Of a stretch of 64,000 nucleotides of DNA, positions 4,299 to 62,734 are shown in pieces. The first letter of the stretch is position 1; each line of letters begins with the position of its first letter. The stretch is from NCBI GenBank assembly GCA_964016885.1, contig OZ024740.1, positions 246,698,001 through 246,762,000 on the forward strand, written 5' to 3'. The stretch comes from Eledone cirrhosa (Eukaryota). The position numbers and the translations under genes were made by a program. The notes beneath the pieces were generated by a model that did not search any database, was not told where the DNA came from, and saw only the letters and a program-made list of their open reading frames with translations.

Positions 4299-4393
4299 TT
4301 TAACCCCGTCGGCAGAGCTCAAGCTGTTTCGACGACTATTTCTAATCCAGAAATACCCACCGAAAAGGCTTGAGCTCTGCCGTCGGGGTTAAA
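4299..4393. repeat. Inverted repeat, about 26-bp arms
   Basis: tttaaccccgtcggcagagctcaagc ... gcttgagctctgccgtcggggttaaa, one mismatch. Confidence 0.8.
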
Positions 4394-4480: not shown

Positions 4481-4556
<76 letters not shown>

Positions 4557-4850
4557 CCGCATGTATCTGTGTGTTTCTAAATATATTGTTCATAACTCCC
4601 TCTGGTCGAGTAATCTTTGAAGTGTAGTGACTGCTGGAAAGCTGCCATTACTCATACTTCTCGTCTCCTTTACCACCTCTTCTACGGCTTCGATATAAAT
4701 ACCCCCTCCGAATCCGTGGTATTTTCTTCGGGGTTATAAGAGGCTTAGCTCTGTTTCTCGACCGTTATATCGCGTGACTATCTCCCCCTCCGCCTTTTGG
4801 GATTCTTTCTCACGTCGTGTAGACGCGTTCTTGAAGCTATAAAATGAGAT

Positions 4851-4943
4851 ATCCTCTTGATAAGTCGGCAGACCTCGCAGGGGCTCTATATCTTTATGAT
4901 GTACTGTTTTTGTTTATGCCACGAAACTACGTAGTCGAGGAAT
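4851..4943 (+). ncRNA. Type-I hammerhead ribozyme, U3:A8 core variant, copy 1
   Basis: atcctc-TTGATAA-gt(c)ggca...tgccac-GAAA-CT-ACGT-AG-TC-gaggaat. Stem I cctc/gagg, stem II gtggca/tgccac with a bulge, palindromic stem III, GUC triplet. Confidence 0.7.
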
Positions 4944-5442
4944 CTAGGAGCAGTTTAGGTATGATACATTTTATTACTAATTATATCTAAATGTTCCTTC
5001 TCTCTTCATAATGTATTTTTAACTCTGATACTGGTTCAGTCTGGTTCAACCGGATTGGTCTGTCCCAGTCATTCATTGAGCAACATCGGTAAGGTTGGCA
5101 CCATTAACTCACGGTTGGGTGTGGATGCATTCATGTATATGTGTGTGTCCGCATGTATCTGTGTGTTTCTAAATATATTGTTCATAACTCCCTCTGGTCG
5201 AGTAATCTTTGAAGTGTAGTGACTGCTGGAAAGCTGCCATTACTCATACTTCTCGTCCCCTTTACCACCTCTTCTACGGCTTCGATATAAATACCCCCTC
5301 CGCCTCCGTGGTATTTTCTTCGGGGTTATAAGAGGCTTAGCTCTGTTTCTCGACCGTTATATCGCGTGACTATCTCCCCATCCGCCTTTTGGGATTCTTT
5401 CTAACGTCGTGTAGACGCGTTCTTGAAGCTATAAAATGAGGT

Positions 5443-5535
5443 ATCCTCTTGATAAGTCGGCAGACCTCGCAGGGGCTCTATATCTTTATGATGTACTGTT
5501 TTTGTTTATGCCACGAAACTACGTAGTCGAGGAAT
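5443..5535 (+). ncRNA. Type-I hammerhead ribozyme, U3:A8 core variant, copy 2
   Basis: Same motif as 4851-4943, exactly 592 bp downstream. Confidence 0.7.
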
Positions 5536-5602
5536 CTAGGAGCAGTTTAGGCATGATACATTTTATTACTAATTATATCTAAATGTTCCTTCTCTCTTCA
5601 TA

Positions 5603-5697
<95 letters not shown>

Positions 5698-6495: not shown

Positions 6496-6699
6496 GCGAA
6501 TTGGCAAACTCATAGTGCATGTATTACATATTAGAGAAATATTAGATTCTAAGATGACAACCATGTTATTCTCTTATGTTTTATGTTTATATTTAGAAAC
6601 CAGATTCACTTGGTTTTGTAAACTCTGTGGATTGAAGATGTGAAACAATCCCTTGATTGTCTACGTTGGCATACAGTCCTAAAATAAACACGTAGCCTC

Positions 6700-9600
6700 A
6701 CCACCACCACCACTTCCACAACCACTACCTCCACCACCACCACCTCCACCACCACGACTACTATCACCACTACCACCACCACCACCACCACCACGAACAC
6801 CACGAACACCACCAACATCACCACCACTACCACCACCACCACTACTATCACCACTACCATCACCACCACCACTACTATCACCACTACCATCACCACCACC
6901 ACTACTATCACTACAACCACCACCACCACTACTACTATCACCACCACCACCACTACTATGACCACTACCACCACCACCACCACTAGTATCACCACAACCA
7001 CCACCACCACTACTATCACCACTACCACCTCCACCACCACAACGAACACCACGAACACCACCAACATCACCACCACCACCACCACCACTACTATCACCAC
7101 TACCATCACCACCACCACTACTATCACTACAACCACCACCACCACTACTACTATCACCACCACCACCACTACTATCACCACTACCACCACCACCACTACT
7201 ATCACCACAACCACCACCACCACTACTATCACCACAACCACCACCACCAATACTATCACTACTACCACCACCACCACTACTATCACCACTACCACCACCA
7301 CTACTACTATCACCACTACCACCACCACCACTACTATCACCACTACCACCACCACCACTACTATCACCACTACCACCTCCACCACCACTACTATCACTAC
7401 CGGCACCACCACCACCACCACCACCAACCAGCACCACCAATACTATCACCACCACCACTACTATCACCACTACCACAACCACCACTACTATCAACGCTAC
7501 CACCACCACCACTACTATCACCACTAGCACCACGACCACCACTACTGTCACCACCGCCACCACCAACCACCACCACCATCACCACCACCACCACCACCGC
7601 CACCACAACTATCACCACCACCACTACTATCACCACCGCCACCACCACCACCACCACCACCACCACCTCCACCAGGACTACTATCACCACTACCACCACC
7701 AACACCACCACCATCACCACCACCACCACCACTACTATCACCACAACCACCACCACCACTACTATCACCACTACAACCACCACCACCACCACCACTACTA
7801 TCACTACCGCCACCACCACCACCACCACCAACCACCACCACCACCAACCACAACCACCACCACCGCCACCACAACCACCATCACCACCACTACTATCACC
7901 ACTACCACTACTATCACTACTACCACCACCACCACTACTATCACCACAACCACCACCACCACTACTATCACTACTGCCACCACCACCACTACTATCACCA
8001 CTCCCACCACCACTACTACTATCACCACTACCACCACCACCACTACTATCACCACAACCACCACCACCACTACTATCACCACTACCACCAACACCACCAC
8101 TACTATCACTACCGCCCCCCACCACCACCCACACCAGCAACCACACCACCATCACCGCCACCACTACTATCACCACTACCACCACCACCACTACCACCAA
8201 CACCACCACTACTATCACTAGCGCCCCCGCCCCCCACCGCCACCCACACCAGCAACCACACCACCATCACCACCACCACCGCCACCACTACTATCAGCAC
8301 TACCACCACCACCACCACCACCACCACGAACACCACGAACACCACCAACATCACCACCACCACTACTATCACCACTACCTCCACCACCACCACTACTATC
8401 ACCACTACCATCACCACCACTACTATCACCACCACCACCACCACCACCACTACTATCACCACTACCACCACCACCACTAGTATCACCACAACCACCACCA
8501 CCACCACCACTACTATCACCACCACCACCAACACCACCACTACTATCACCACTACCACCACCACTACTACTATCACCACAACCACCACCACCACTACTAT
8601 CACTACAACCACCACCACCACTACTATCACTACAACCACCACCACCACTACTATCACTACTACCACCACCACCACCACTACTATCACCACTACCACCACC
8701 ACTAATACTATCACCACTACCACCACCACCACTACTATCACCACTACCACCACCACCACTACTATCACCACCACCACTACTATCACCACAACCACCACCA
8801 CCACTACTATCACTACTACCACCACCACCCCTACTATCACCACTACCACCACGACCACCACTACTATCACCACCACCACCGCCACCAGAACTATCACCAC
8901 TACCACCACCACTACTATCACCACCGCCACCACCACCACCACCACCACCACCACCATGACTACTATCACCACTACCACCACCACCACCACCACCACCACC
9001 ACCACGACTACTATCACCACTACCACCACCAACACCACCACCATCACCACCACCACCACCACTACTATCACCACCACCACTACTATCACCACTACCACCA
9101 CCACCAGTACTATCCTCACTACCACCACCACCAGTACTATCAACACTACCACCACCACCACTACTATCACCACAACCACCACCACGACTACTATCACCAC
9201 TACCACCACCAACACCACCACCATCACCACTACCACCACCACTACTATCACCACCACCACTACTATCACCACTACCACCACCACCACTAATATCACCCCA
9301 ACCACCACCACCACTACTATCACCACTACCACCACCACCAGTACTATCCTCACTACCACCACCACCAGTACTATCAACACTACCACCACCACCACTACTA
9401 TCACCACAACCACCACCACCACTACTATCACCACTACCACCACCACCACTATTATCACCACCAGCGCCACCACTACTATCACCACAACCACCACCACCAC
9501 TACTATCACCACAACCACCACCACCAATACTATCACTACTACCACCACCACCACTACTATCACCACTACCACCACCACTACTACTATCACCACAACCACC

Positions 9601-10822
9601 ACCACCACTACTATCACCACAACCACCACCACCAATACTATCACCACTACCACCACCACCACTACTATCACTACAACCACCACCACCACTACTATCACCA
9701 CAACCACCACCACCACTACTATCACTACAACCACCACCACCACTACTATCACCACAACCACCACTACCACTACTATCACCACAACCACCACCACCACTAC
9801 TACTATCACTACCACCACCACCACTACTATCACTACAACCACCACCACCACTACTATCACCACAACCACCACCACCACTACTATCACCACTACCACCACC
9901 ACCACTATTATCACCACCAGCGCCACCACTACTATCACCACAACCACCACCACCACTACTATCACCACAACCACCACCACCAATACTATCACTACTACCA
10001 CCACCACCACTACTATCACCACTACCACCACCACTACTACTATCACCACAACCACCACCACCACTACTATCACCACAACCACCACCACCAATACTATCAC
10101 CACAACCACCACCACCACTACTATCACTACAACCACCACCACCAATACTATCACTACTACCACCACCACCACTACTATCACTACAACCACCACCACCACT
10201 ACTATCACCACAACCACCACCACCACTACTATCACTACAACCACCACCACCACTACTATCACTACAACCACCACCACCACTACTATCACCACAACCACCA
10301 CCACCACTACTATCACCACCACCACCACCACCAATACTATCACCACAACCACCACCACCACTACTATCAACACTACCACCACCACCAATACTATCACTAC
10401 TACCACCAACACCACTACTATCACCACTACCACCACCACCACTACTATCACCATTACCACCACCACCACTACTATCACCACTACCACCTCCACCACCACT
10501 ACTATCACTACCGGCACCACCACCACCACCACCACCAACCACCACCACCATCACCACCACCACCACCTTCGTCGCCACCACCACCACCGCCACCACAACC
10601 ACCATCACCACCACTACTATCACCACTACCACCACCACCACCACTACTATCACCACCGCCACCACCACCACCACCACCATCACCATTACTATCACCATTA
10701 CTATCACCACCACCACCACCACCACCACCACCACCACCACCACCACCACCACCACCATCACCACCATCACCACCACCATCACCACCATCATCACCACCAC
10801 CACCACCACCGCCACCGCCACC
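6700..10822. repeat. About 4.1-kb (ACC)n-derived compound minisatellite with a dominant 27-bp unit
   Basis: Unit of the form accaccaccaccactactatcacyacm. It reads as poly-T(8)I on +, and V(8)I or GGGGSGDSS on -. Rare variant blocks such as acgaacaccacgaacaccaccaacatc recur. Confidence 0.95.
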
Positions 10823-11285
10823 GATGTGACTCACTAAATTAGATATGTATTCCTCACTTTAAGATAAAATAAAAATACACAGAATTGTTGCATCGGTGAA
10901 AGAATATCATTGCACTCTCCGTCACGCCCCTCTCTATCTCTCTGTCTCTCTATCTCCACAGCTCCCTCTCTCTATCTCTCTATCTCTCTATCTCCACGAA
11001 CTCCCTCTCTCTATCTCTCTATCTACCCATCTCTATTCCTATCTGCTTTATTCACCTCAAATATTTGCCTCTCATCTTCCTTACTCTTTTTTTTCAACGT
11101 CTCTATAACTCTATCTGGTTTTCTTTCTATGCATATACACAAACATATATATATGCGTGTGTATGTATGTATGTATGTATGTATGTATGTATGTATGTAT
11201 GTATGTATGTATGTATGTATGTATGTGTGTATGTGTGTATGTATGTATGTATGTATGTATGTATGTATGTATGTATGTATGTATG

Positions 11286-21425: not shown

Positions 21426-23610
21426 AGACAAGAACAAAGACACCCACTTGGCAAAATCTACCGACCCATTGTATGCCAGAACCTGATGTATAAGATGTAT
21501 ACAGCCTGCCTGATCCTATTCCTTCAAGGTCACTGCGACAGTAATGACATCATCACAGATGAACACGCAGCTGGAAAGAAAGGTGTTTGGGATGTGCAGA
21601 ATAACTCTTAATTAACAAAACTGCGATGTCGAGGGTGCGACAACTTAGGAGGAATATGGCTACAGTTTGGCTGGACTACAGGAAAGCTTTCGATTCTGTT
21701 CCCCACTCTTGGATGATAGAGGCCCTCCGACTTGCTAAAGTCACAGACATTATTATCAGAGCCATAGAGAAGCGGTCTTCTTCTTGGGCTACTATCCTAA
21801 AATTAAAAACAGAGAAGGATGACTCTATTTTCACTGATAAAATAAAATATCACAGGGGCTATATTTCAAGGAGACAGTCTCTCTGTGCTACTATTTAACC
21901 TGTCATTAAACCCCTTGCCCTTTCTGCTCAACAAATGTGAAGGATACATGATTGGCTCTCAGGAGGACAGAAATACGAACTTAACCCATAATTTCTTTGT
22001 GGATGACTCGAAACTCTATCCCAGAACATAAACGGGATGAAGAAAAATCTAGAGATACCTGGGGATAGATGAGAATATTCCCTATAATGGGGTTTGTAAT
22101 AAGGAACGTGTAACTAGGGAATATTACACCCAATTAAGAAAGATTTGGTCATCGGAACTCTCTGCACAAAATAAAACAGTGGCTCACAATGTGTTTGCTG
22201 TGCCTGTCCTAACACCAACGTTTGGAATACTCAATTGGACGATAGACGAAATCCGAGCAACTGATGTTAAAACTCGAAACATTCTGAACAACACCGGAAA
22301 TTCCACATCAACAGTGACATAGACCACCTCTACTTAAAATCTAAGCAGGGAGGCCGAGGCCTAACATCAGTCCAGACAGCATTTGAGTGTCGCATCATAT
22401 CCCTCCGACAACCTAGGAGCCCATCTATTGAGCAAATCTATCTGCATGAGAAAGATAAGATCAGGAGAATTGGGAAGGAACTCCTTGAAAGATACACCTT
22501 GCATGATAATCAAAAGCTCACAATCTGGGAAATTGCCCAGCAATACCGCAGCGAATCCATGGATGAAAAACTGCATGCTTATCAGCAAAAAATCATGCAT
22601 GAATATGTTGCCAGGAAGCTCCAAAGTGAGAGTAATATAGATAAGCAAAGTAGTCTATCTTGGACCAACAACCCCTATATTGACTCCGACTTTGAAGGAT
22701 ATGCTTTTGCAATCCAAGAACAGGAGATTAGCACGAAATACCTGATTCACAAAAGAGATAGGGATGCAGGCAAAACACCAAGATGTGACAACAAATGCAG
22801 ACTGCAGAATTAATATTGAAGATGTCACCCATATCATAAGCAGCTGTCCAAAGATGTCATCACGGTACTATCTACCTAGGAGGCATGATGTAGTGGTGAA
22901 AACACTGCAATCCGTAGAAAATATAGCCCCGTCAATAAACACATTAAAAATTACAGCAATGTGGAAGACATACATATACATAATATGAAAGAGTACTGGT
23001 GGAATATTCCAGTCAAAACCCCAATAAAATGCAAGCATAACAGACCAGATATAATGATATGGGACATGGAAAAGAAGGCATGCACAGTAGTGGAAGTTAG
23101 CTGCCCATCAGATGCCAATATAACATTAAAGATTAGTGAAAAGGAGAATATCTATGCAGAACTAATGAGAAATCTACAGATACTCCACCCCGACTATACC
23201 TTCAGATTTATGTCTGTGATTATTGGGGCACTGGTATTTGTTAGGAGCTGCGTCAGTACAAATCGTGAGAAGCAGCTGGGCTTCACAGAAACAGAAAGAA
23301 CACGACTAGTTAGGAAATTACAAGTACAATCCATTAATATGTAAAACATTCCAAATATTCTGCATCTAATAACTGCAAATACATATGTAGAGGCATAAAG
23401 CATCTTCACATGCACACATATAACTCAAAACATCCATATCCACACATACATTAACACCCGTACCTGCACTCACAAGCACGCATGCAGACATGCATACATA
23501 TCTACGTAGTTGATGTTGATTAAATTCCAATGAGAGAGTCTTGTATCTATGTTAGAAACCGACTCTCTCTCTATTGGTAAAAAATTATAAAATTATAAAA
23601 GCAGAAGTAC
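21426..23610 (+). mobile_element. 5'-truncated R4/Dong-like non-LTR retrotransposon (RT, CCHC, RLE), family B
   Basis: WLDYRKAFDSVPHSW, FQGDSL, FFVDD, AIQEQEI, CRL...EDVTHIISSCP, KHNRPDIMIWD...VVEVSCP; frameshifted; flanked by (CATA)n-type repeats. Confidence 0.88.
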
Positions 23611-28875: not shown

Positions 28876-30577
28876 TTTCTTTATTGGCCACAAGGGCTGA
28901 CATCAAGAAAAACCTTACAGACGGCACAGGACGGTACAGAACGGAACGATATGGGTTTTGTGCGCGTAAATATTTTTATTATTTATATAAGAAAAGAAAA
29001 AAAAAGGACATAAAACATATATATATAAACAATAAAAATGAAAATTGAAACAATGAAAAATTCCCCAATAGAGGGGGGGGGGGACCTCCGAGGGTTACTC
29101 GTGGCGAAAACCACACAAAAGACCACGGCCACTCTGACCACCAAGGCAAGCGCCCTCTCTCAATTTTTCCATCTCTCAAACTACAGACGTATATTCAAAG
29201 TGGTCCCGTTCACTCGGACCATTCTCGCTACATTCACCCACCTTTCAACAAACTTGCTAGAAAGCAGCACTTGCCTCTCCACCCTCATTTTCCTCTTCAA
29301 GTGAAACTTGAAAAAGTTAATTAGGGATTCGCCGAAGAGGAAAGTGTTTGTCTTTAACCCTTTTAACCTTGTCCACCACACAATCTCTTTCGCCATGGGC
29401 ACCAGGCAGATGAAAACCACCTGCCCTTCCTCCTCGAGGGAAGACGGCGAGACCATCTGCACAATGGACTCAGTCGACAACCTGATCAGTCCCACACGCG
29501 ACAGCAACTGTTCGACATAGCTCCACAAGTCAGCAATGCTCGGGCACTGAACGAGTGCGTGCACAACGGTTTCGTCGCTATGCGTGCATCTCGGACAGGC
29601 TCGGCTGACGGCACTTCCGAGCCTGTAGAGCTTATCTCCAACCGGCAGCGCTCCCCAGTAGCACTGTCAGGCCAGGGATTTTTGGAAGTTATCCATAGGC
29701 CCCGGGCTGAAAGTTCTCCGGAAGAGAGCAAACAGCTGATCTTCTTCGACGCCCAGGATCTCTCCGAGAATGTCGTCGCTCTTCCCCTCCACTAGTCCTC
29801 TATAGAACGCCGAGGTGGATGTTCCACCGATACTGGTGCCAAACTGGGAGAGGGCAGTGAGCGCCTGGAGACATTCCAGTTTCCAAGCGCTATTCCTCGG
29901 TCTTTTTCTGACCCAGGACTGCAGCTCCGTCAAGGAGACGAGCTGTGGGAAAACGTGCCTGGCGAACGGCGACCACACCCGTTCACCATCAAGGAAGCAC
30001 CAGAGATGTCGCAGCCTCAGCGCATATTTGCGCATCATCAGCCATGGCATGCCCAGTCCTCCACGCAGCGGGTGTTGACAGCAGATAGATCGGCTGACCA
30101 TGGGAGGGCGTTCCTTCCACAAAAAGCGGAAGAGGAGGCGCTCCATTTTGGTGAGAGTTGGGCTGGAGCAAGCGACGACGGTGAGGCGATAGCAGATGAC
30201 GGATGCGATGTACGCATTCGCCACCTCCGCCCGGCCTTTCAGGGACAGCTTCCTCTCAGCCCATTTCTGGGTGAGGGAGGCCACCCTGCTCGACACCTCG
30301 TTCCAGTTTTTCTCCATCTGGAGGTCCGGTCCGAACCAGACCCCGAGCAATTTAACCGGTCCGTCCGTCCAATGCCCCACGACGCTGTCGGACGGCACGG
30401 ACTTACCTCTCCAGGTGCCGAACTGCAAGCCCACCGACTTTTCCTGGTTTATCTTTGCTCCTGTCACCTCCTCGTATTCCTTGAGAGCGGTGCCGAGCAT
30501 CTGGACGTGTCTGGTGCACGACACCACCACGGAGACGTCGTCAGCGTAAGCCGACTCGGATTTCCCGCATCCTAGTT
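28874..30577 (-). mobile_element. 5'-truncated Tx1-like LINE (from YADD to the 3' end)
   Basis: SAYADD, INQEKS, KLLGVWF, LSLKGRAEVANAYIAS, GGLGMP and a zf-RVT-like C-terminus; 3' end aataaagaaatc followed by (ATT)n. Confidence 0.9.
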
Positions 30578-30586
30578 AATAATAAT

Positions 30587-30770
30587 TGTTTCTACATTTG
30601 GCACAAGGCCAGCAAATACCCAGTGCATTACTGGTACTTTATTTTATCGACCCCGTAAGGATGAAAGGAAAAGTTAACCTCGGCGGGATTTGAACTCAGA
30701 ATGGAAAGGGCTGTAACTCTATGCGTCAAAGCATGGCGTCCGACCCTCTATCGATACTGCCATTCCACCT
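30587..30770 (-). mobile_element. SINE, main family, between two Tx1-like LINEs
   Basis: Full SINE body with short (AAT)n on both sides. Confidence 0.85.
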
Positions 30771-30779
30771 AATAATAAT

Positions 30780-33700
30780 GCTTTCTTTATTAACCACAAG
30801 TGTTTACATAAAGTAGACATTAAGGACAGTACAGGACAATACAGGACGGTACAAAAGGGCATTTCTGCGTGTAAAAAAACAAAAAAAACAGAGGATATAA
30901 TAATAGAACAATGAAAAAATTCCCCAATAGGGGGGAGACTTCCGAGGGACATTCGTGAAGAAAGCCCATTAAAAAGCCACAGTGAACCTGACCACCAGGG
31001 CAAGTGCCCTCTCCCAGTTTTCAACCTTTAATTTACAGACACATACTCAGAGTAGGCCATTCACTAGGGCCATTCTTGCCTCTCTCACCCATCTTTCAAC
31101 AAAATGCTGGGAAGAGAGCACTTCCCTCTCTACCCTGATTTTCCTTTTCAAATGAAATTTGAAAAAGTTAATCAGGGCATCACCGAAGAGGTAAGTGCTC
31201 GTCTTCAGCCCTTTCAAACGTGTCCACCATACTATCTCTTTCGCCATGGCCACCAGACAGATAAAAACTGCCTGCCCTTCCCGGATAAAGGAAGAGGGAG
31301 GGGCAATCCTCACGATGGACTCAGCTGATAGCTGGATCCGTCCTACACGCGACAGCAGGTGTTCGACATAAACCCACAAGTCAGCAATGCTCGGGCACTG
31401 GACGTGTGCGTGCAGGAGGGTTTTGTCGCCCTGCGCGCATCTCAGACATGCCCGGCTGACGGCACCTCCATGCCTGTAGAGTTTATCCCGAACTGGCAAA
31501 GCTCCTCGGTAGCACTGCCAGGCCAGAGATTTCTGGAAGTTGTCCATAGGCCCCGGCCCGAAAGTTCTTCCGAAGAGATTGGCTAGTTGATTTTCGTCAA
31601 CGCCTAGAGTTTCCCCAAGTACGTCGTCGCTCTTCCCCTCCACTAATCCTCTATAGAACGCCAATGTGGAGTTTCCACCGATCACATTGCCCGATTGGTC
31701 GAGGGCTGTGAGCGCCTGAAGACATTCCAGTCTCCAAGCGCTCCCTCTCGGTCTTCGCTTGACCCAGGACTGCAGCTCCGTCAAGGAGACGAGCTGAGGA
31801 AAGACGCGTCTAGCAAACGGCGACCACACCTGAGCACCGTTGAGGAAGAGGTGGAGATGTCGTAGCCTGAGCGCGTGTCTGCGCATTATCAGCCACGGCA
31901 TGCCCAGCCCTCCACGTAGCGGGTGTTGACAGCAGATGGACCGCCTGACCATCGGAGCGCGTCGCTTCCACAAAAAGCTAAAGAGCTAACGCTCCAGCGC
32001 AGTCAGGCGGGGCTTAGGACAAGGTACGACGGTCAGGCGGTAGTAGATGACGGATGCGATGTACGCATTCGCCACCTCAGCTCGACCTTTCAGGGATAGC
32101 TTCCTCTCCGCCCATTTCTGGGCGGAGCGGAAGCCACCCTGCTTGTCACCTCGTCCCAGTTTTTGTCCGTCTGGAGGTCCGGACCGAACCAGACCCCTAG
32201 CAATTTAACTGGTCCGTCCGTCCAGCGCCCGACGACTCTGTTGGACCTGCCTCTCCAGGTGCCGAGCTGCAGGCCCACTGACTTTTCCTGGTTGATCATT
32301 GCTCCTGTCACCGCTTCGTATTCTCTTAGTGTAGTGCCGATCGCCTCGATATGTTTGGCGTTCGACACCACTACGGTGACATCGTCCGCATATGCTGACA
32401 CGGATCTTCCGCATCCTAGTTCGCTCGTGACCCCCTCAACGTCTCCAGTTTGTGCAGTAATGGCTCAATACGTACAAGAGGGACGAGAGGGGACATCCTT
32501 GGCGGACCGAGCGCATAATGTTGAACGGTTCCGAAAGGTGACCGTTCACTCTCACCACAGAGCAGATGTCGCTGTGCATGGCAGCGATCCAGCCTCCGAA
32601 GACGGGCCCAAATCCAGCTGCCCTCAGGACTGCCGCTAGGTAACGATGGTCGACCCTATCGAAAGCTTTCGACTGATCTAAATTGATCAAGCACCCACCC
32701 GTTCCAGGTTCCCTAGCTACCCTCTCTACTATGTATCGCATGAGGTGGAGGTTGTCGTGGATGGATCTGTCGGGAATGATGCATGTCTGCGCCTCTCCCT
32801 CCAGACCACCAACGACAAGCGCCAACCTCTTTGCTAGCACCTTGGCCAAAATATTGAACTCTGTGTTTAGCAGTTATGGGCCTAAAATTATCTATGTTAT
32901 CCCCCTGGTTCGGATTCTTTCTCAGCAGCGCCACAGCTCCTCGGCTCACAGAGCTGCGAATTCTCCCTTTCTCTTGCCAGTTACAGTAGACGTCCGCCAA
33001 GAGGCCTCCGAACAAGTCTGGCATCTGTACGTAAAGTTCATAGGGCAGACCATCCAAACCAGGCGATTTACCCCTTGTGCAGCCAGTCATTGCCTCCCGT
33101 ACTTCAGCGGCTGTTATCGGCTTTTTGCAACACTCCGCCTAAGTGGCCGAGAGCCGCGGCAGTCCGTCGAGGTAGACACTAAAGTCCATCCCTCGATCGG
33201 TCCGCCGCTGCCCCCGAACAGCTGTGCGAAGTGTCGCTGAAAAGCTTCACACATTTGCCCGGGATCGAGTAGCATGCGCCCGTCGTGGTCCACCAAAGAC
33301 CGGATCGTGGATTTGTTGCCACGACGCGCCTCCGCCACTCGGGCCCATTGAACGGCTTTCGTCCCCTCATGTCTGAGAGCACGCACCCTAGCTCTGACAA
33401 CGCAGCCTTCGTGCTTTGCATTGAAGAATTGGTCAAGGGCCAATTTCGCCGCAAGTACGTCGATCGCGATGTCTTTGCTAAGCGCCACGTCTAATTTTCT
33501 AACTAGTTCTTCCTCTGCTCTATTTTTCTCTATTGCTAAAGCCTTACTAAACCTAATGGACTCTATTCTAATCGCTCTTTTCAGAGCAAACCACCACTTG
33601 TTGACAATGGCCCCCGTCAACGCCCGCTTAACTAGTTCGCTAATCCGGTCTCTGTAGGCCTTGCGCGCTGGTAAGGACGCGTTTAGCTTCCAGTAGCCAG

Positions 33701-36638
33701 CTCCTCGTCTATGAAGCCTGTCTAAGTCAAGCACACAGGTCACGAATTTGTGGTCCGTGTAGCTGACTATCTTGAATTGTGGACAGCCTATGCTAGACCT
33801 ATCTATTTACCTACAAAATACTCTATCTAGATATGATCTGGATGACCCTATGCGATTTGTCCACATTGGCACATTCGGGAAATCCAATCGGTAACTGTCA
33901 GACAGTTCAAAACTCCTGAGCAGGTTGGTGAGGCTCTTGTACCCTCCTCCCCTATCCGCTAATCCCACACAGTCCCAGCGTGCATCTAAGATCCCGTTCC
34001 AGTCGCCCACTAACACTAAAAAGAGGGACGTTCCAAGAAAGGTCTCCAGACGCCGGAAGAAATCGGGCCGCCCTGCTCCTGTCGGGGCAAAGACGGCTAC
34101 TAGCCTGAAAGCTTGCCCATCTCCGCTGGTCACGTCCAGCACCACCAACTTACCCTCTGGGTCCAGGAAGATGGCCCGTTTGGCGAGATCCAAACCTCTC
34201 CAAAAAAGCACAGCAACTCCTCCCCCCGATCCAAGACGGCTGGGAGATGCGTACACATCGTAGCCGCCGAAGATCGGTGCGAAGGCCCGTGCTTCGGAAA
34301 TTCTTGTCTCGCTGATAGCCACTGCATCTATGTTCAGTGACCTGAGGTCGTTGAGCAGGTGGCCCTGCTTCTATGACGACCCCAAGCCAGGCGCATTTAT
34401 GCTGCCTATTCTGAGTGAGGTCATGTTGAAATGGAGTGGAAAAGATGGGAAAAACCACTTACCTTACTTCTCGTAGAGGAAGGATGGTTTCTCCATCCTT
34501 TTCACTGCATCTGGCCTCCTCCGGAAGGATGTCCTTATAAATCCTCCTGGAGAGTGCTTGTCGGAACTCTCCGATGTCTTTGGGGAATTTTTGTTTTAGT
34601 GTCGTGTACGTTTTCTGTGTGATGCGAGTGATTTGTATGTGTGGAGGTGGTGTGAACTTTTGGGTTGTTGTGTAGTCTTTTTCTGTGATGCTGGTGTAGT
34701 GTTGGATGTAGTGTAATAATTGGTTGTTGTTCAAATTTATTGCTGTGTAGTGTGTATCGTTTTGGTTGTTTTGTTTTGTTTGCATTTGTTGTGGGTTTGT
34801 TTCTGTTTCGCTTTTTGGTAACTTTTGCGGTGTTGGTGATGGTGGTGTTGGGGTTAATGATGGTGATGGTGTTGGTGTTGGTGGTGATGGGGTTGGTGAT
34901 GCTGGTGTGGATGGTGGCATAGCTGTCCTAACTTTTTTGTTTGATAGTTTATTTGTTTCCCTCTGTATTTTGTTTTTGGAGGGAGAAGGAAGGGGATGTT
35001 TTCTTTTTTGGTTTCTTTTTCTTTTTTTCTTTTTTTCTGATACCATTTCCCACTCCTCGTCGTCACAATGTGTCTCCAGTTGCGATAGGTCGGGGAGTGG
35101 AAAATCCTCCACAGGCGTTGGTTTTGGTTGTGGCGTGGTGGATGGTGTAGGCGCTGGTGCTAGTTCTGGCGCGTTGGGTGGTGGTGGTGTTGGTTTTGCT
35201 ACTGTTGCTGGGGTTGTTGCTGTTACAGTTGCTTCTGTTGTTGCTGCTACAGTTGTTGCTGCCATTTCTGCTGCTGGTGGTGTTGATGGTTGAGTCACTG
35301 GGGTGGGTAAGAGAGGTGGCCTCAACCTTTTAGCCTGAGGGGAGAAAGCCCTTAGGTGGGTTCCTTCACCACAAATGACACAGCTAGGCCTTCTGCCCTC
35401 GACGATTACGGTGAGGTGACTGCCGTCAGTGAGGTCTATTACCTCTGGGATCTCCTCAATGCTTTTTTGGTCCGCTTGGATCAGGAGCTCCATCCCAGAT
35501 CCGGACCAGTTCTCCTGCTTTTCTTTCGCTATTTCGATTATCTTGGTGTTGGCTTCGATGCCGGCGAGGACGGCAGCCATTAGCCAGCGAATTTCGATGG
35601 CCGGTGGAACGTTGGTCACCCTGATCTTCACGAGTCTCTGGCCACAACAGCTTGGGACGAGTGTGGAGTCGTCATTTCTTAATGGGTCCATGGATTGTTC
35701 TCTGGCCTCCTGTGGTGTTTCAAAGAACACGTTCACGGTTCCATATTTCTGCCCACGTCTGATGTGGGTTTTTTTTTGCCCACACATGTCCCAAAGCTTT
35801 TTGGATTTTGGACTCGGATGCCCGTTCCACTCGGCGCGATTTTATATTAATCGTCCGATAAGACACGATGCATAGGCGCCGATTCTCCATTTTATTAGGT
35901 GTGTGTGTGTGTGCGGGGGTGGGGGGGGGGGGGGTGACCCTGTACCCATCTTTCTTTACCATTTTTTTTGGCTTCTTCTAATTCCTCCTGAGTTACCTGG
36001 TATGCTTCGCAATGTTTCGCTACTCTGGCAAAAGACAGGGTTTTCTTATTCTCATTGTTGCTGTTGTTGTTATCGTTATTTTTGTTATTGTTAATTTTAG
36101 TTTCAGTTGTGGTGGTGGTGGCGTCAGTGGTGTTCGGTGTGGAAGAGTTCATTTTGGCTGAATTCGTTTCGATATCACGAGATAATATATTTTTTTTTTG
36201 TTTCTGTTGTTGCTGTGGTGGTGGTGGGGGTGGCGGCTTCAACACCTGCAGTCATTGGTAATGGTGGGAAATGATTGTCTGCCTGAGACAAATTAAAAAT
36301 ATTGCTACTGCTTATATTTTTAGTGTTGGCAAACGTAGTAATATTTACAATGGTGGTGTCGGTGTGAGGTGTTAGTTTGTGAGGAAGGCTCTCAGTTACT
36401 GGGTTCAGCTGTGAGTCGGCCATGATTTTTCAAAGAATTTTTTTTTGTTTGATAATTATAAAAGTTTAAATTTTGGGGTCAAGGCCCCAATCTTTTTGAG
36501 TGTCCTTTTCAGAAATCAATGTATGTGCACTTATATACAGTTAACAATAAAAATTTTCCATAAATGGCAATTTTAAACAACTGAAAATAACAAATCTTTG
36601 CGGAGCTCACGATAATACGATTTACTACGTAGGTCGCC
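30780..36638 (-). mobile_element. Apparently full-length (~5.9 kb) Tx1-clade LINE, ORF1 plus ORF2 (APE-RT-zf), disrupted
   Basis: ORF1 from 36423 with knuckle CVICGEGTHLRAF(S)P; ORF2 from about 34424 with APE motifs SINA.GL, AISET, GDWNG, SYLDRVF, TDHK and GYWKLN; RT motifs GKSPGLDGLPYE, LDQSKAFDRVDH, SVRQGCPLS, YADD; (ATT)n at both ends. Confidence 0.92.
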
Positions 36639-43817: not shown

Positions 43818-43860
43818 TGTGACATCAGTCCTGGAACTTTTCTGACCCACCTCGTATATA

Positions 43861-43937
<77 letters not shown>

Positions 43938-44200
43938 TTTCAAACCCAAACTTCACACTAAGAGTTTTCTCCTTCAAAGTAATCACCCTGGAGTATGTAA
44001 CTGCAATCTTAGCTCTCTGCAACGATCAAACTTTTTTTTTCATAATTTTATATACATGACCTCTGTTTCAGGTCGTCAAGCAATGAGCACAGAGCAACGA
44101 ACAAACTTGAAAACTCCGTCAGAAGCACTGGGATTGCTGCAGCAAGTGTATGGAGATGAGACGATGTCACGCTCACGTGTTTTTAGTGGTGCAAGAGGTT
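43818..44200 (+). mobile_element. Mariner remnants: TIR-like end (43818-43856, minus) and transposase N-terminal HTH
   Basis: TA-cgaggtgggtcagaaaagttcc; MSTEQRTNLKTPSEALGLLQQVYGDETMSRSRVF. Confidence 0.75.
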
Positions 44201-44544
44201 GCACCAAAGAAGGACAACGTTTTATAGTAAAACACAATTTGACATGCGCATTAGAAAATCTAATATATGTATTAACTTGCTCAGGTTGTCGAGAACAATA
44301 CATAGGCCAGACCAAAAACAGCCTCCGCCAACGCATGACTGTCCATAGATCCCAAATTAAAATACGGGAATACAGGAAAATACCACTGAGTGAACACATT
44401 GATACCTGTGCCGCCCAAAATCATCCCAACTTTAGAATCTTTCCCCTCTACAAATTTAAAGATAATGCCACCCACACCCAGCGCATCAGCAAGGAATCTC
44501 ACTTTATTAACAAATACAGACCCCGTCTAAACACTTCTCCCTAA
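44201..44544 (+). mobile_element. Penelope-like GIY-YIG endonuclease, 3' part of the ORF
   Basis: NLTCALENLIYVLTCSGCREQYIGQTKNSLRQRMTVHRSQI...EH...RISKESHFINKYRPRLN; CxxC between the GIY and YIG equivalents. Confidence 0.88.
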
Positions 44545-45084
44545 GACGAACCCACAACGTACACACGTCAACATACATACCTACATCAGCATACATCCTA
44601 CATACACCTCTATCCTCATATAAACACAATGACATACGTAAACACACATGTTCTATGGTGCCACACAAATATACACAAATTTGCATACCTTTTGATGTTT
44701 ATAGATATAAACGTGCCGACACACACACATACATATACGCACACATGCATTGCACACTGATGGGCACATACATATTTGTACACAAGTATTCCAATACGGC
44801 AGGGCCTAATGGATTCCCCTTGCAGTACGTGCAATCTGGACACTCACACACACCTTGGTGTTATGACAATACTATATATCATTTCACCCCTTTTATTATT
44901 AATGTTTTTGATGTTCTCTTGAGAGAATCGTTTTTGCTGAAAATATCGAATAATGAACACCATTTTTACCAGTATCACAAAAATACTGGTCCACCCACAC
45001 ACACATAAACACACACACACACACACACACACAGACACACATATGCACACACACATACACACGCGCACACTAACATACAAAGAG

Positions 45085-45118
<34 letters not shown>

Positions 45119-45233
45119 TTCTACGTATAAGACAAGAGTTGAAAAATATATTTCAACATGTTAAAATATCCCCCACACAACATATGTACAGACACATTCC
45201 TACTGACCGATCCCTCTTACACGAATTACTCTG

Positions 45234-45317
<84 letters not shown>

Positions 45318-45411
45318 TTGTCTTAATAGACACGTGAACTGTTGACCTTTCAACATGACTGCAATTCACACACACATCCCTACTGACCATTATCACAACA
45401 ATGAACCTCTT

Positions 45412-45442
<31 letters not shown>

Positions 45443-45895
45443 TTGTCTTAAAAGACTTATTTTTCAGTGACTTCTCAATCAGGCGAAAAATGACACTCTT
45501 CGACAAACCTACATTTGGCGCAAAATCAATGTTTAACATTCACGTGACCTCTACCGACCAATCAAAATTGTTTTGACCACAAGAATTTTTGCAACACCAA
45601 TTGGCGCGAAACTTATTTTAATACCTCTGGAGCCACTTTTTTCACATAAAACAGGTAGAATTTCCAAAACTGATCAGATTAGAGCAAACATCACGGGCGC
45701 TCTATCTCAAAATTATTTTTGAAAAGCATTAGAAATGCGCAACCGGTAAAAACTTAAAACTAAAACTGAATACTAACCAATACTCATTACTAATTTTTAC
45801 TTATTCCTAATTAAACTATTTTTCACTGGAAACAATTTGTCAGCATTTTCTTTTTCTTTTACTAATATATCACAACTGCTGTGTTACACCTCTAT

Positions 45896-45949
<54 letters not shown>

Positions 45950-61625: not shown

Positions 61626-61808
61626 GTTTCTACTTTTGGCACAAGGCCAGCAATTATCCCAGTACATTACTGGTACTTTATTTTATCGACCCCGTAAGGA
61701 TGAAAGGCAAAGTTAACCTCGGCGGGAATTGAACTCAGATCGTAAAGGGACGTAACTATGCTGGAAAGCATGTCCGACCCTCTGCCGATACTGCCAATTC
61801 CCCGCCCT
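61626..61808 (-). mobile_element. SINE, main family, inside an (AAT)n tract
   Basis: Full SINE body with AAT repeats on both sides. Confidence 0.88.
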
Positions 61809-61831
61809 TAATAATAATAATAAGAAGAAGA

Positions 61832-62734
61832 AGAAGGAGGGGACAATAGGCCAGGGGATGTCCAAGGAGGAAATAATATCAAGGAGAAAGAGCAGCCTTC
61901 AGGAAAAATCCCTTCATAGTACCTTCTTTGAGAAAACTGAATTTAGAGATCCACAGACATGGAACTGGTTGAAAAGAGGAGACCTTCAAAAGGCTACAGA
62001 AGGAATGTTAATGGCTGCGCAGGAGCAGGCCCTCAAAACGAAGTGGTTGAAACACCATATTTACAAGGAGGAGGCTAGCCCACTGTGCAGGATCTGTGGA
62101 GAGAGAGAGGAGACTGTGGCTCACATTGTATCCGAGTGTAAACACCTAGCCCAGACTCATTATAAGGGCTGGAGACATGATGTGATGGGCAGGGTGATCC
62201 ACTGGCACCTATGCAAAGTAAACAATTTACCACATTCTGAGAAGTGGTATGAGCATAAGCCAGAGGCGGTGATAGAAAACGATCAGGTGAAGGTGCTATG
62301 GGATTTTAGGATACAGACGGACAAGAAACTTGAACACAATAGACCTGACCTGGTGGTTGTGGACAAAGAAAACAGATCGTGCCTGATTGTGGATGTGGCT
62401 TGCCCATTCGACACGAGAGTGCAAGAGAAGGAGAGGGAGAAAATTAACCGATACCAGGACTTAAAGTGGGAGGTAAAAAGGATTTGGAACTGCAATGAAG
62501 TCAAAGTGATCCCGATTGTCATAGGCGCACTAGGGACTATCTCAAAAAGTTTCCATGGATGGTTAAAGAAAATTGGCCCCTTCACGATTTTTGGAACGCT
62601 TCAAAAGGCATGCTTGCTGGGAACAGCAAGAACCCTCCGATACGTCCTGAATATCTGAGGCTGCAGGTAGTGGCTTGATATTCATTTCAACAAACTTTCC
62701 AGTTAACTAACATCAATGACTGAGACTCAAAGAG
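61832..62734 (+). mobile_element. R4/Dong-like family A 3' fragment with an uninterrupted CCHC plus RLE frame
   Basis: ORF 61858-62658 (266 aa) is intact: CRICGEREETVAHIVSEC, NRPDLVVVD...IVDVACP; tail (AAT)n to about 62841. Confidence 0.92.

Follow-up and report, generated by a model that had tools for sequence, protein, structure and literature searches.

A high-copy non-coding repeat family with a U3:A8 hammerhead in Eledone cirrhosa, probably moved by Neptune-type PLEs

Background

Two near-identical copies of a hammerhead-like motif lie 592 nt apart in a stretch of 64,000 nucleotides of the Eledone cirrhosa genome (assembly GCA_964016885.1, contig OZ024740.1, positions 246,698,001 to 246,762,000), hereafter called the window. 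Both have U3 and A8 in place of C3 and G8. The locus raises the question of whether the motif is a genuine ribozyme or an accidental look-alike and, if genuine, how the repeat that carries it is copied and inserted.

U3/A8 hammerheads are natural and active in vitro according to section 8 of PMC3088659, and PMC4209133 gives about 1,300 matches with U3:A8 among the PLE hammerheads of S. mansoni. The core by itself is therefore not new, although a sequence-only reading of the window had implied novelty. The same paper describes PLE hammerheads as cleaving weakly, as dimers. Non-LTR retrozymes are presented in PMC7229834 as tandem units of ~300 nt reported as circular RNAs. A preprint (bioRxiv 10.64898/2026.07.22.740005) proposes them to be non-autonomous PLE derivatives and gives eight of nine frog retrozyme dimers as uncleaved in vitro.

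A tandem hammerhead insertion in a microsatellite

The insertion (4549..5608, + strand; all positions are those of the window) is a 5'-truncated member of a dispersed non-coding family and spans 1.8 units of 592 nt. The CCTC-TTGATAA motif starts at 4853 and 5445, and C17 of the GUC lies at 4936 and 5528. Segments 4541-5016 and 5133-5608 are 98.1% identical across 476 nt, and none of the seven differences between the copies within 4549-5016 falls inside the hammerhead at 4852-4941. The near-identical hammerheads 592 nt apart described by the sequence-only reading are thus confirmed in position, and the two are identical in their letters; its account of 4549..5608 as a tandem pair holds for the hammerheads but not for full units, of which only 1.8 are present. 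Both sides are flanked by (TA)n tracts of target microsatellite, the 5' junction (4482..4548) consisting of (TA)n followed by (TG)n and the 3' junction (5606..5694) of (TA)n. Cutting after 4936 and after 5528 would release a predicted 592-nt monomer (4937..5528, +; 42.6% GC). A fixed 3' end of the family, end A, lies at 5008..5016 (+) and again at 5600-5608, where the window insertion ends, and a 'tail' of ~164 nt (5017..5179, +) runs up to a second fixed 3' end, end B, at about 5178-5179. In contigs of runs X1-X4, which belong to a single study and possibly have the same source as the window, loose (AT)n ends occur at 5016 and 5178, and among the rows listed positions 4857 and 4862 have no alternative letters.

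The predicted fold is a type I hammerhead with three stems, open at stem I (copy 1, 4852..4941, +; copy 2, 5444..5533, +). Stem I is TCCTC/GAGGA (5 bp; 4852-4856/4937-4941), stem II consists of 6 bp from which C4866 bulges out (4864-4870/4917-4922) and GAAA occupies 4923-4926. The core U3 U4 G5 A6 U7 A8 A9 lies at 4857..4863 (+; copy 2, 5449-5455), and all other core features of a hammerhead are present, including GAA, A15.1-U16.1 and H17, with U3:A8 replacing C3:G8. The hammerhead fold with a U3:A8 pair proposed earlier is borne out computationally in every core position and all three stems. Stem III is a 10-nt palindrome (4926..4935, +; copy 2, 5518-5527) predicted to form a dimer duplex. 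Loop 2, previously estimated at ~50 nt, is indeed long, but measures 46 nt (4871..4916, +) and is itself a conserved hairpin that prolongs stem II (13 pairs, 97.1% of cells paired). The label 'minimal' does not suit this hammerhead, as stem II is extended and stem III can form 3 bp with a 4-nt loop, so that the monomer is able to fold. Rfam gave no hammerhead match even at E<=10, in line with the claim that a standard search would miss the motif; the Rfam matches listed were all below gathering scores and mostly represented miRNA models on microsatellites.

No credible ORF was found in the unit, and thus no ORF with the RT and GIY-YIG of an autonomous PLE; a tRNA gene is absent from the region, leaving a tRNA origin unsupported. 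Non-coding tandem units, a type I hammerhead in each and low GC agree with the earlier proposal of a retrozyme-type element. The unit of 592 nt is larger than the ~300 nt given as typical, with no strict limit, in PMC7229834.

Several other features occur in the window. Near-perfect hairpins of 95-120 bp at 4299-4393 and 1223-1342 are MITE-like, and about 6600-10850 is taken up by a long tandem array, degenerate and rich in ACC, in which the GC skew is extreme. LINE-like fragments (zf-RVT, Exo_endo_phos) lie at 29184-34370 (-) and 61756-62655 (+), and a weak RGS domain match at 22271-22810 (+; E 4e-4, below the Pfam cut-off) is possibly an exon. Runs X5 and X6, which carry two other organism labels, gave low-depth contigs similar to a young subfamily over 4640-5231, which carry no weight as evidence here; relatives, contamination and transfer are candidate explanations.

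Family size and conservation of the hammerhead

A descriptor that left positions 3, 7 and 8 free gave 7,005 exact matches across the host genome (3.0 Gb, rich in microsatellites) and none in the reversed control, so the motif is no chance find; the figure counts hammerheads rather than loci and is a lower bound. U3/A8 is present in 6,972 of these matches and C3/G8 in none, and all 17 matches without U3 have A8, as all 16 without A8 have U3. The U3:A8 core is fixed inside the family and shows no covariation there. Covariation of U3 with A8 within the family, which the sequence-only reading had proposed to look for, is accordingly not seen, C3/G8 being found in other families only. Loss of TTGATAA and of stem pairing in other copies, which it had named as an outcome that would speak against it, did not occur in the genome-wide search: TTGATAA is conserved and the stems keep pairing. 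The sole descriptor match for a canonical C3/G8 version of the family turned out to be an unrelated hammerhead beside a truncated copy, and pattern searches for a short-loop version gave only deletion or junction derivatives (13 and 6).

Identity to the window unit is about 90-99%, 78-86% and 72% in the different subfamilies. Between them, 1 of 43 columns is variable in the hammerhead and 87 of 476 elsewhere (82 loci), a contrast that is somewhat inflated because part of these loci were picked up by hammerhead patterns. The sole variable column, in stem I, still gives a U-G pair. The oldest subfamily (~72% identity) was met by chance next to a GIY-YIG match; it has U3/A8 in 49 of 50 pattern matches, and 27 of the 42 motifs read from it show another stem III palindrome, the remainder mostly having the appearance of CpG decay. 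Across 42 rows of the family chosen by motif (40 distinct), the stems are paired in 97.8% of 1,159 cells, against 33-54% in slid controls. The fourth palindrome pair is A-U in 26 of the 40 distinct rows, G-C in 13 and G-U in one, the change from A-U to G-C being that of the oldest subfamily. In a monomer this pair would close a 2-nt loop, and pairing is therefore possible only between two hammerheads. The double change keeps the palindrome at these dimer-only positions and would favour the double-hammerhead fold, for which it is moderate evidence, since A-U to G-C represents one evolutionary event. The loop 2 hairpin is likewise maintained, through A-U/G-U and C-G/U-G changes. The motif is thus held across subfamilies down to ~72% identity with pair-preserving changes, and this pattern in the aligned copies indicates that the family, which is new and of high copy number, carries a genuine hammerhead variant under selection.

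Predicted folding of monomer, dimer and circle

The monomer hammerhead fold is predicted at -21.6 kcal/mol against -22.7 for the free fold, but the dimer is still strongly favoured: the cofold of two hammerheads reaches -59.1 kcal/mol vs 2 x -22.7. The palindromic stem III and dimer fold put forward in the sequence-only reading are thus supported at the level of prediction. In the free minimum-energy fold of the natural dimer (4800-5608) the palindromes are paired and the active site for 5528 is complete. The full double hammerhead lies +2.2 (minimum energy) to +4.8 (ensemble) kcal/mol over this free fold, because a downstream hairpin blocks the strand for site 4936, and two separate monomers lie +12.9 (minimum energy) or +14.4 (ensemble) kcal/mol over it. 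The hairpin in question is predicted to be long, to run from the cleavage site on (4937..5008, +) and to rival stem I at site 4936; its alifold support is weak (-2.4 kcal/mol), and it therefore rests on single-sequence folding. The circular monomer folds at -162.2 against -140.3 +/- 6.3 for 40 shuffles (z = -3.5).

Insertion anatomy and the A+B rule

Copies of the family sit in (TA)n targets, within which target-site duplications are unreadable, and show 5' truncation, partial tandems and head-to-head inversions. Their 5' ends are variable, but the 3' end is fixed at one of two points with (AT)n behind it, end A at 80 nt past the cleavage site and end B ~164 nt beyond A. In inverted pairs with both ends scorable, one arm ends at A and the other at B in all cases (51/51; A+A 0, B+B 0). 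These pairs come from three sets: 24 of 31 pairs were scorable in the first (54 loci after dropping 10 overlapping ones; 23 independent, L107 being a duplicate), 15 of 17 in the second (29 loci) and 13 of 18 in the third (29 loci), where a fourteenth, L215, was dropped as a microsatellite false match. In L107 the entire inverted insertion is present twice, about 2.55 kb apart. Single arms end about equally at A (14) and B (10). Among 40 A+B loci of a looser set, 36 B arms continue past A and the sum of the arms exceeds one unit in 35. Simple twin priming on one linear monomer is known from L1 work; the overlap of the A and B arms is unlike it.

Both arms of a pair belong to one subfamily, except in the nested case L138, and 15 locus-private variants (9 loci) are common to all units of both arms. 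Divergence is 0.44% among units within an arm, 0.58% between opposite arms and 5.4% between different loci, the nearest other locus lying at a median of 0.62%. As this last value is close to that within arrays, the homogeneity of the arrays argues only weakly for a circle. The cleavage site is crossed by 114 of 123 arms, and only two begin no more than 8 nt away from it, against 3.5 expected; because arms cross the site and their 5' ends are not piled there, a linear cleaved monomer is excluded as the usual template, which leaves a circle or an uncleaved multimer. The arm 5' ends cluster at unit positions 1-12 (window 4549-4560; 16/123), 126-147 (window 4674-4695; 15 vs 4.6 expected) and 176-200 (window 4724-4748; 19/123), and microhomology, RT pause sites and a transcription start are candidate causes.

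The 5' truncation, partial tandems, inverted 5' copies and a tail at one end are the anatomy of a non-autonomous PLE passenger. The family is very probably a non-autonomous element that depends on PLEs and whose hammerhead is under selection. New here are the strictness of the A+B rule, the length of the tail and the compensatory change at the dimer-only pair; the tail at one end was already in print qualitatively.

Neptune-type elements as the candidate driver

The genome contains long ORFs with an RT as well as a GIY-YIG at the C terminus, belonging to elements with the same (TA)n target preference as the passenger (150 GIY-YIG matches scored of 10,595 candidates). Most RT-GIY-YIG ORFs possess the CX2-5CxxC linker that marks Neptune/Nematis, and the elements are therefore called Neptune-type. 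Their 3' hammerhead is followed by a terminal (TA)n, and their inverted pairs are likewise A+B (11/11; 12 pairs were found, of which L112 was dropped as broken and L068 and L043 were re-read by eye). Their tails are about 35-65 nt long as judged by eye, against 164 nt in the passenger. Three Neptune families have U3/A8 in all motif matches (29/29, 29/29 and 18/18), a fourth has it in all three copies, and one family has C3/G8 (21/21), overlapping loci being included in these counts. Covariation at the 3:8 pair hence separates families and is not seen inside them. A six-family Neptune tree did not resolve the U3:A8 families as one clade.

Up to 110 stretches surrounding the 150 GIY-YIG matches that were scored gave no autonomous PLE with sequence in common with the unit, tblastn of the flanks found no partner PLE, and the unit has no match among the Neptune 3' ends sampled. 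The driver is consequently linked to the passenger by anatomy and target only. L057 and L148 represent insertions near or within PLE 3' regions.

Other hammerhead arrangements were seen on the way. A truncated Neptune-type copy in the window (43846-45900, +; GIY-YIG E 6e-7) ends in (TA)n, and its hammerhead near 45719 has U3:A8 and GCAA for GAAA, as do 17 of 18 motif matches of its family with respect to GCAA; a fixed A13C core in that family would be unusual. The Neptune family of L079, L078, L043 and relatives has a variable internal (TA)n between end A and the tail, a hint that the target repeat pairs with it to prime synthesis. Hammerhead repeats with no linked ORF are of three kinds (L031, L041, L077 and L080; L054 and L058; L035), two of them C3:G8 and one U3:A8. 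In L062 and L080 the 100-300 nt before the hammerhead hold motifs which we take to resemble CCAAT boxes, an E2F site and a TATA box, and these are possibly a pLTR promoter.

Proposed mechanism and rival explanations

We favour with reasonable confidence the explanation that this is a high-copy non-coding family with a U3:A8 hammerhead, likely a non-LTR retrozyme moved in trans by Neptune-type PLEs. A tandem insertion would be transcribed by read-through, and the palindromic stems III would then pair; the double hammerhead so formed would cut after GUC, probably at the downstream site first and probably slowly or with the assistance of a protein. The 592-nt monomer would be ligated to a circle. 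A Neptune RT-GIY-YIG complex would nick both strands of a (TA)n tract, and reverse transcription would begin at two AU-rich sites inside the RNA, with one of them (A or B) serving each end of the target; copying round the circle with early stops would produce the truncated, tandem and inverted arms. The lizard PLE has two internal RT start sites in vitro, with both strands cleaved and extended, according to PMC11167929. More tentatively, Penelope-type integration may follow a strict rule of one start site per target end, with a dimeric RT-endonuclease using a single ribozyme-made RNA circle when it primes the two cut ends of a (TA)n target.

An RNA circle is somewhat favoured as the template of reverse transcription. 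An uncleaved read-through multimer might instead be copied with no circle formed, the hammerhead acting elsewhere (in trimming, stability or protein-assisted folding), which we consider rather unlikely though worth serious attention. In PMC11167929, uncleaved RNA is the main substrate of the lizard PLE in vitro, no reads end at the cleavage site, and its hammerhead needs protein and is dispensable, mutants still being inserted. The 114 of 123 arms that cross the cleavage site fit a multimer equally well, and 106 of 123 arms contain only one or two hammerheads. On the other hand, a linear template cannot lengthen arrays, and truncation shortens them in each round, whereas the array of L103 reaches 4.9 + 2.7 units that differ among themselves by ~0.1% and from the nearest other locus by 0.75%; the fold of the circular monomer relative to its shuffles also speaks against a multimer.

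The unit could also be the solo pseudo-LTR of an unsampled autonomous Neptune and the copies its 5'-truncated or tandem pLTR products. The layout of hammerhead, A, tail and B is as in Neptune 3' ends, and frog retrozymes are homologous to PLE pLTRs according to bioRxiv 10.64898/2026.07.22.740005. We nevertheless regard this origin as improbable, given that the head-to-tail junctions of units contain no ORF and the unit itself no credible one, that the PLE fragments near some copies are confined to the flanks, and that the sampled Neptune 3' ends do not match. Least probable by far is an ordinary satellite or SINE-like repeat with a dead or accidental hammerhead look-alike: it would suit the missing Rfam match, but core and stems are conserved across 28% divergence with pair-preserving changes while the remainder drifts, the region has no tRNA gene and the insertion anatomy is PLE-like.

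Comparison with known systems

Metazoan non-LTR retrozymes likewise form non-coding tandems with a type I hammerhead per unit and GC <45%, and have thousands of copies and co-occur with PLEs (PMC7229834; bioRxiv 10.64898/2026.07.22.740005). The family differs from them in unit size (592 nt here, ~300 there and 350-390 in mussel), in its U3:A8 core and 46-nt loop 2 hairpin, and in its (TA)n targeting and head-to-head inversions, and no pLTR homologue of it was found; they are reported as circular RNAs, and the circle here is a predicted one. PLE pLTR hammerheads, among them the U3-A8 variant of Cercyon in S. mansoni (PMC4209133), share U3:A8, a palindromic stem III, a bulged nucleotide near the base of stem II and a dimer prediction. 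Unlike these, the present family has a longer palindrome (10 nt), a long loop 2 and high homogeneity, and consists mostly of tandems and inversions rather than single motifs.

Neptune PLEs (Craig et al., PMC8557442) and Anolis Poseidon PAc (PMC11167929) resemble the family in 5' truncation and partial tandems, in an upstream copy that is inverted, in a tail confined to one end, in targets that are AT-rich or (TA)n, and in two internal 3' end points. In contrast to these elements, the family has no ORF, its tail is ~164 nt rather than 30-40 nt, and one tail per inversion is strict within the sample (51/51). Non-autonomous Chlamys elements, MRC1 being an example (PMC8557442), are also PLE passengers with multicopy head-to-tail insertions. 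They share 3' sequence with their partner and belong to a clade that lacks canonical hammerheads, whereas here a hammerhead is present and no partner was found in the sampled stretches. Within the literature covered, which mostly lay outside subscription journals and supplements, we found no report of this family or of a U3:A8 tandem retrozyme, and no counted A+B rule.

Conclusions

For the study of how PLEs integrate, this passenger, which is short, young and of high copy number, provides a compact substrate with a clear A+B prediction that suits the in vitro PLE assay already in use. If the start-site rule is true, it would explain PLE tails, inversions and tandems in one step; start sites could lie 164 nt apart, and a passenger could be moved with no sequence homology to its driver. 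On that reading U3:A8 hammerheads would also be the majority form in the PLE system of this genome, invisible to standard searches. Independently of the rule, the family offers a compensatory change found in nature that would favour the double-hammerhead fold. The ~7,000 hammerheads here, like those of several Neptune families, escape both CUGANGA descriptors and Rfam, so counts of animal retrozymes are likely too low.
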